Shown here: positions 6,790 to 7,485 of the stretch, piece after piece
How the letters are laid out: every line of letters starts with the position of its first letter
How positions within the stretch are numbered: the stretch's first letter is position 1
Virus record (IMG/VR): IMGVR_UViG_2718218131_000006
DNA length: 49,917 nt
Reading direction: 5' to 3' (one strand)
From: a virus
Lineage: Duplodnaviria > Heunggongvirae > Uroviricota > Caudoviricetes
The notes under the pieces: generated by a model
Told to the model about the DNA's origin: nothing
The model's input: only the letters and a program-made list of their open reading frames with translations
The model's database searches: none
Translations under genes and position numbers: made by a program

Positions 6790-6922
6790 AATGTTCCTCT
6801 CAATTGGTATTATTAATCGCAGTGATAGGATATTGCACAGCTATTGCGCGATATCATCAGAACGCTGTTTGTTACCCTGTAACCAGCAAGCTCAGTCTGT
6901 TAACGGAATTAATGAGGGTTTT

Positions 6923-7450
6923 ATGAAATGTAAAATCATTGCTGCCATTGCCATGCTGACAGCAGCATCATGCGGATACGCAGCAGAACAGGAAGTCCCA
7001 ATGAACCTTGTCAGTGCTGACGGAAAAGAAGTCAGCATTGGAAAAATAACCATTCAGGAGACCCCCTACGGTCTGCTGTTCACACCAGCCCTTCACTCTC
7101 TGCCTGAAGGCATTCATGGTTTTCATGTGCACGAAAAAGGAAATTGCGCCCCGGCACTGAAAGACGGAAAACCGGTCGCAGCATTATCGGCTGGCGGTCA
7201 CTTTGACCCGAAAAACACCGGCAAACATCTTGGCCCCTGGTCTCCGGATGGACACCTGGGCGACCTCCCTGCGCTGTTCGTGACGCATGACGGAAAAGCG
7301 AACTACCCGGTCCTGGCCCCGAGACTGAACTCATTAAAAGAGATTAAAGGGCGTTCTCTCATGCTTCATGCTGGCGGTGATAACCATCATGACCATCCGG
7401 AGCCCCTGGGCGGTGGTGGTGCGAGAATGGCCTGCGGCATCATTCAATAA
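6923..7450 (+). CDS. sodC: Periplasmic Cu/Zn superoxide dismutase (SodC), a moron on the opposite strand to the tail genes
   Basis: 175 aa from [20 protein letters not shown] (signal peptide); metal-ligand motifs [22 protein letters not shown]; GAGGG ribosome-binding site. The track ORF 6416..7450 upstream of 6923 is antisense to J and discarded. Confidence 0.9.
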
Positions 7451-7456
7451 TCAGTC

Positions 7457-7485
7457 AGGTAAGGGGCGGGCCCCTTACCTTTATT
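7457..7485 (+). terminator. Rho-independent terminator after sodC
   Basis: aggtaagggg-cggg-ccccttacct hairpin followed by a T-rich tract. Confidence 0.65.

Follow-up and report, generated by a model that had tools for sequence, protein, structure and literature searches.

The sodC locus and its neighbors

The window, by which we mean the whole 49,917-nt stretch analyzed (IMG/VR record IMGVR_UViG_2718218131_000006), is an entire lambdoid prophage: at one end (1-873) it has a gene for an EspF-repeat, TccP-like effector, at the other (48799-49917) the integrase gene. Inside its tail operon lies an ORF of 175 codons, with ATG at 6923 and a stop codon ending at 7450, that we call sodC. The morphogenesis genes around it, including tail fiber, lom, J, I, K, L, M, H and those beyond, are all on the minus strand. 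A preliminary description of the locus, made from the sequence without database searches, had placed sodC antisense between J and the tail assembly genes; the strands of all these neighbors agree with that, and the tail assembly gene next to it is I (Table 1). A locus 100% identical to this one is present in E. coli O80:H26 strain EC-107, with the same gene order and with the ORF named sodC in RefSeq. The tail fiber protein has collagen-like Gly-X-Y repeats (PF01391) set between prophage tail-fiber N-terminal and C-terminal domains.

Table 1. Features of the sodC cassette and of the tail genes on either side of it, by position in the window.
Feature	Coordinates	Strand	Basis
Tail fiber	1271-2590	-	ORF
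lom/ail	2649-3248	-	Pfam Lom
Gene J, tail tip/host-specificity, left flank; start codon abuts the cassette	3316-6789	-	1157-aa ORF; six gpJ Pfam domains; RefSeq gpJ
Divergent spacer (133 nt), presumed sodC promoter and 5' UTR	6790-6922	+	39.8% G+C
Candidate extended -10, TGgTATTAT (TATTAT at 6808, TGG before)	6805-6813	+	Relaxed scan, in silico only
Ribosome-binding site GAGGG, 4 nt before ATG	6914-6918	+	Direct read
sodC CDS (175 aa and stop), predicted periplasmic Cu,Zn superoxide dismutase, sodC-F type	6923-7450	+	Pfam, NCBIfam, PHROG, ligand alignment
Predicted signal peptide, aa 1-20, with lipobox AASC (aa 14-17, nt 6962-6973)	6923-6982	+	Regex match at position 14
Predicted intrinsic terminator T1: stem of 10 bp with a GCGG-type tetraloop, TTTATT after it	7457-7486 (hairpin 7457-7480)	+	Terminator scan, fold
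Remainder of cassette-specific DNA, to the right breakpoint with sodC-less phages	7487-7534		LC727876 alignment
Second predicted hairpin with a long U-run, T2; abuts stop codon of I	7598-7643	+	Terminator scan, -16.4 kcal/mol, then GTTTTTTCGCTTTT
Gene I, tail assembly, right flank	7641-8321 (longest ORF; PGAP 7641-8222)	-	Lambda_tail_I 1.5e-16; annotation
Gene K	8219-8962	-	Pfam JAB and NlpC/P60
Gene L	8968-9666	-	ORF
Gene M	9666-9995	-	ORF
Tape measure	9992-12571	-	ORF

The encoded enzyme

The ORF is predicted to encode a complete Cu,Zn superoxide dismutase. The Pfam Sod_Cu profile (PF00080) matches at 2e-32, with 112.8 bits against a cut-off of 28.9 and with profile positions 3-133 of 133 covered, and the NCBIfam SodC equivalog model (NF007628) scores 221.9 bits against a cut-off of 165. 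A phmmer search of PDB gave about 1e-62 to solved bacterial SodCs, Salmonella SodCI (1EQW) among them, and 1e-57 to E. coli SodC (1ESO). In PHROGs the gene matches phrog_1975, annotated "superoxide dismutase precursor" in the category "moron, auxiliary metabolic gene and host takeover".

For alignment with the protein we took human SOD1, Gifsy-2 SodCI, Fels-1 SodC, the SodC from the EDL933 prophage and one divergent allele from E. coli. The copper ligands H68, H70, H93 and H149 are invariant (human His46, 48, 63 and 120), as are the zinc ligands H93, H102, H111 and D114 (human His63, 71, 80 and Asp83), the catalytic R168 and the disulfide residue C171; the disulfide partner C77, within "GNC", is kept in all five bacterial sequences. 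The Cu/Zn SodC identity proposed in the preliminary description is therefore upheld by the Pfam and NCBIfam cut-offs and by a full set of metal ligands. That description had also named loss of these ligands on careful alignment as a ground for rejecting the identity; with none lost, this argument against a Cu/Zn superoxide dismutase fails.

The protein begins with a hydrophobic leader of 20 residues followed by AEQ, a predicted N-terminal export signal. For the O157:H7 proteins SodC-F1 and SodC-F2 a leader with an AASC motif has been described, with cleavage sites for SpI (20/21) and SpII (16/17) (PMC2569942).

Expression signals

The preliminary description credited sodC with a ribosome-binding site, an AT-rich promoter region and a terminator of its own. 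The first is plain to read, as GAGGG. For the second, the G+C content of the 133-nt divergent spacer is 39.8%, the corresponding values being 53.0% in sodC, 57.1% in J and 60.2% in I. The spacer also holds, on the minus strand, the J ribosome-binding site GAGAGGAA, just 5' of the J ATG, and it has blocks conserved with a 79%-identical allele from strain cM8a, among them a stretch at about 6838-6872. It falls within the region of a 299-bp fragment upstream of the near-identical O157 gene for which a lacZ fusion was reported to be active, data not shown (PMC2569942). A strict sigma-70 scan of positions 6400-7900 returned no sites; under relaxed settings the best matches had 8 of 12 consensus positions, and one candidate extended -10 element was found. 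The promoter claim thus stands in part: the low G+C content upstream is real, a consensus sigma-70 site is not seen, and the spacer is a plausible location for the promoter.

Two further comparisons bear on regulation. A scan of 6740-6935 for the PhoP box (KGTTTA-N5-KGTTTA) gave only matches with three mismatches, as frequent as in the background (2.7 per kb); being no better than chance, they lend no sequence support here to PhoP regulation of the sodCI kind. When the upstream regions were aligned with those of Fels-1 and Gifsy-2, no meaningful conservation was found past the J start, so that a shared promoter could not be inferred.

The terminator claim is matched by a predicted hairpin, T1, downstream of sodC. 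Its stem has six G-C pairs and folds at -17.9 kcal/mol (z of -2.5, with one of 200 shuffled sequences folding as well), and its TTTATT tail is only moderately U-rich. The second hairpin, T2, is kept at 96-98% identity in the sodC-less Stx2c phage LC727876; since it is common to sodC-less phages, T2 is not part of the sodC cassette. It is possible that it serves as a back-stop, shielding I from antisense read-through out of the I-J slot. Searching Rfam over 6300-8000 with E up to 1 gave an STnc400 RNA match at T1, which is sub-threshold (23 bits) and absent beside sodC in Gifsy-2 and Fels-1, and a snoRNA match; we discarded both as chance hits.

Boundaries and inheritance of the cassette

To compare the locus with an empty site, we aligned the window with phage LC727876. 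Homology runs as far as the start codon of J, where it breaks off at 6789/6790, and resumes at about 7535 toward I; between J and I the window has 745 nt whereas LC727876 has 136 unrelated nt, and the two share the J start and the 106-nt spacer after I. Among 151 phage records matching 6600-7800, 149 have the flanks without the cassette, and sodC is present in two, the Stx2a phages Stx2_EH2201 and Stx2_EH1846. That the same J and I occur without sodC in an Stx2c phage marks sodC as a discrete cargo cassette, or moron; the insertion postulated in the preliminary description is supported by absence of the cassette from otherwise near-identical phages. The extent first assigned to it, 6790-7485, covers the functional unit, but sequence specific to sodC phages continues to about 7534.

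In the I-J spacer of LC727876 itself (1733-1756 of that locus) we noted a perfect 10-bp hairpin, ACAGGCATCC-CGGA-GGATGCCTGT, with TTGTTTTTGTG next on the minus (late-operon) strand; it is terminator-like and lies inside the late operon, between I and J.

Identity along the locus is uneven. For the prophages of EDL933 and Stx2_EH2201, identity to the window is 99.7-99.9% over the cassette and 83-98% over J, I, K and L. Strain cM8a has the cassette at 79%, the 5' two-thirds of J and I, K and L at 91-96%, and the receptor-binding 3' end of J at about 70%. Judged from these identities, the cassette is inherited independently of its flanks, and their pattern points to allele replacement within a fixed I-J slot.

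A bolder reading, based on five such segment-wise comparisons, would make the I-J junction a dedicated cargo slot, with a resident plus-strand terminator (7598-7643) even in phages lacking sodC, where recombination in the tail genes on either side would exchange cassettes entire, promoter, gene and terminator together. The cassettes at 99.7-99.9% amid tail genes that differ by 2-17%, and the 79% allele in the same slot elsewhere, are what suggest it. Divergent sodC transcription, beginning beside the J ribosome-binding site, might in addition modulate J expression. We consider this reading doubtful, and if true it would add modestly to the lambdoid mosaicism already known.

The cM8a prophage has other cargo at its K-L junction (7269-9294 of that locus): a protein with a P22AR-like antirepressor domain, a YlcI/YnfO family protein, an Arc-family repressor and a ClpP-like protease. 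A sar antisense RNA (Rfam, 67.6 bits) is also found at this junction, and an ompC paralogue lies beyond L.

Distribution

We found the cassette (6790-7540) in 546 of 5426 complete E. coli genomes, or about 10%, with one to five copies in each and almost unchanged: identity is at least 99% in 541 of 548 E. coli records. The bearers include O157:H7, O55:H7, O145, O103, O111 and O121 strains and many animal isolates. The exact SodC protein occurs on 589 contigs, and both RefSeq and the Stx2a phage records name the gene sodC.

Relatives outside the E. coli and Salmonella phages were sought in species-representative genomes. The best 80 among the matches listed are 47-70% identical and come from Serratia, Pseudomonas, Burkholderiales and others; none of these 80 has J, I, K or L within 2.5 kb of its sodC, and neither an obvious chromosomal donor of the phage gene nor another phage context for it was seen among the species-representative matches listed.

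The rest of the prophage

The effector gene at the left end of the window (plus strand) encodes a TccP/EspFU-like type III effector with five proline-rich repeats of 47 residues (PF04806, 3.7e-136). In the closest complete genomes its counterpart is a 726-nt CDS annotated as EspF repeat-containing protein, with espJ just upstream.

At 23816-27246 an IS21-family element (istA/istB, plus strand) abuts an IS3-family element (minus strand), the latter with an ALIL frameshift pseudoknot at 26849-26965; the pair sits between the small terminase subunit gene and the PerC/lysis region. Mapped onto the closest complete genomes, the window falls into two halves, one from 1 to about 25000 and the other from about 26333 to 49917; some 1 Mb separates them, and they lie on opposite strands (near zinT/yodB and potC), from which we infer that the arrangement in the window differs by inversion or by recombination between prophages or IS copies.

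Adjoining the IS elements is a gene for a PerC-family transcriptional activator (27723-28037, minus strand; PF06069, 3.8e-44). In EPEC and EHEC, homologues of PerC/Pch are known to regulate the LEE. A RelE-family toxin ORF followed by a helix-turn-helix (HTH_3) ORF occupies 35525-36350 on the plus strand (PF06296, 1.3e-46 for the toxin), opposite to the neighboring early genes, and resembles a cargo unit.

A moron probably expressed in the lysogen

We conclude with high confidence that 6790-7534 is a self-contained moron of a lambda-like E. coli prophage that encodes a periplasmic Cu,Zn superoxide dismutase of the sodC-F type. In a lysogen the late operon, here on the minus strand, should be silent, as in lambda generally. 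Transcription of sodC would run opposite to it from a promoter in the 133-nt AT-rich spacer beside the J start, translation would begin from the gene's own GAGGG site, and transcription is predicted to end at the 7457-7486 hairpin, with 7598-7643 as a possible back-stop. The precursor would be exported, part of it being cut by signal peptidase I to yield a soluble periplasmic dimer and part being lipid-modified at Cys17; export and lipidation are proposed here because the leader is identical to that of SodC-F1 and SodC-F2, where they have been shown. The enzyme would clear periplasmic superoxide and so raise resistance to host-derived oxidants. During lytic growth, Q-antiterminated late transcription would presumably cross the cassette antisense to reach J.

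Could the gene instead be a relic in decay, a passenger that has lost its expression or its catalytic activity? The lack of a consensus promoter in our scans would fit, and the prophage, with its IS21 and IS3 insertions, may itself be defective. Against decay are the intact ORF with its seven metal ligands, catalytic arginine and disulfide cysteine, and the exact protein on 589 contigs; the identity of at least 99% across 541 records is also hard to reconcile with it. The near-identical O157 protein, moreover, is expressed and highly active, SodC-F1 reaching 19,380 U/mg (PMC2569942). We judge a relic very unlikely and keep to an active moron.

A function in the lytic cycle has an equally small chance of being right. 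The gene does lie inside the late region, and oxidative stress induces lambdoid prophages, so an enzyme made on induction might for example guard the producing cell or the virions from that stress. However, closely related phages are without sodC, and the orientation of the gene means that in late transcripts it is represented by its antisense alone. Expression of the O157 copies is seen in ordinary cultures without induction, where chromosomally FLAG-tagged SodC-F accumulates in log phase, in stationary phase and under anaerobiosis (PMC2569942). By RNA-seq, Gifsy-2 sodCI is one of the small number of genes of that prophage with high expression in lysogens, while the lytic genes are silent (PMC7067206). 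These observations favor expression from the prophage state.

There is, finally, a next-to-negligible chance that the unit is mainly regulatory, with convergent or antisense transcription over I-J dampening J and tail assembly and the enzyme secondary: the presumed promoter region of sodC lies immediately next to the ribosome-binding site and start codon of J, two tandem plus-strand terminators precede I, and Fels-1 has an antisense sodC in the same slot, but conservation is clear at the protein level, the active site is complete, and the phages lacking sodC are complete sequenced Stx phage genomes with the same tail genes.

We also rejected a pseudogene, and a host chromosomal gene adjoining a prophage remnant, the second being excluded by the position inside the tail operon and the presence of the gene in two Stx2a-converting phage records.

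Comparison with known SodCs and morons

By its sequence the window gene is sodC-F of D'Orazio et al. (2008). The cassette is accordingly already known and routinely annotated, its gene, location, expression and enzymology having been published in 2008 for O157:H7; the Salmonella counterparts in Gifsy-2 and Fels-1 were published earlier still. Its use here is as a clean positive control for recognizing lysogenic-conversion cassettes from sequence alone, the recognizable marks being an antisense gene in a late operon, a ribosome-binding site and terminator of its own, and deviant G+C content.

O157:H7 carries two near-identical copies, sodC-F1 and sodC-F2, in prophages CP-933R and CP-933V, that are told apart by nt 335, F1 having Leu and F2 having Pro as a result (PMC2569942). 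The EDL933 cassette we retrieved is 99.7% identical to that of the window over 745 nt and shares the order lom-J-sodC-I-K-L. Both SodC-F proteins have the same leader with AASC lipobox as the window protein and a mature length of 155 residues. Between the window and the retrieved EDL933 copy there are two amino acid differences, P62 versus S62 and L112 versus P112 (window first); the window has CTG (Leu112) at the nt 335 codon, as SodC-F1 does, and Pro112 defines the retrieved copy as SodC-F2. SodC-F1 differs from the window protein by about one residue. The prophages differ: that of the window is lambdoid, carries a TccP/EspF-repeat gene and is nearest to those of chicken, dog and atypical EPEC-type strains, and is not an O157 prophage.

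The properties reported for the O157 proteins are those of a dimeric, highly stable enzyme, resistant to proteinase K and EDTA, that is split between periplasm and membrane via its AASC lipobox; sodC-F expression is RpoS-independent and enriched in intracellular bacteria (PMC2569942). O157 sodC-F mutants were more sensitive to H2O2, a phenotype seen in vitro only, and there was no additive effect among the three sodC genes (PMC2569942). The chromosomal SodC of E. coli (1ESO) shares fold and chemistry with the window protein, to which it is about 61% identical in the mature portion. It is, however, monomeric, RpoS-dependent, less stable and fully soluble, and less active, SodC-F having about three times its activity (PMC2569942).

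Fels-1 STM0924 lies antisense in the I-J slot as the window sodC does, and the two proteins are 61% identical with all ligands conserved. Called hypothetical in its record, it is known in the literature as sodCIII. The non-coding flanks of the two, in contrast, cannot be aligned past the J start, and the Fels-1 leader is without the lipobox cysteine. Gifsy-2 sodCI (STM1044) is likewise antisense Cu,Zn superoxide dismutase cargo in a lambdoid tail operon, with 59-60% amino acid identity, but its slot has lom/M and L on either side, not I and J. SodCI is dimeric and stable, paralleling SodC-F (PMC2569942). Its gene is PhoPQ-regulated (Golubeva and Slauch, 2006, as cited in PMC10907172), whereas the window sodC has no PhoP box above chance.

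The broader comparison is with the classical lambdoid morons, such as bor and lom of lambda and those of HK97 and HK022 (Juhala et al., 2000, as cited in PMC7067206), which insert between conserved phage genes, bring their own signals, deviate in composition and are dispensable for lytic growth. The window sodC shows no difference in kind from these and is a textbook example.
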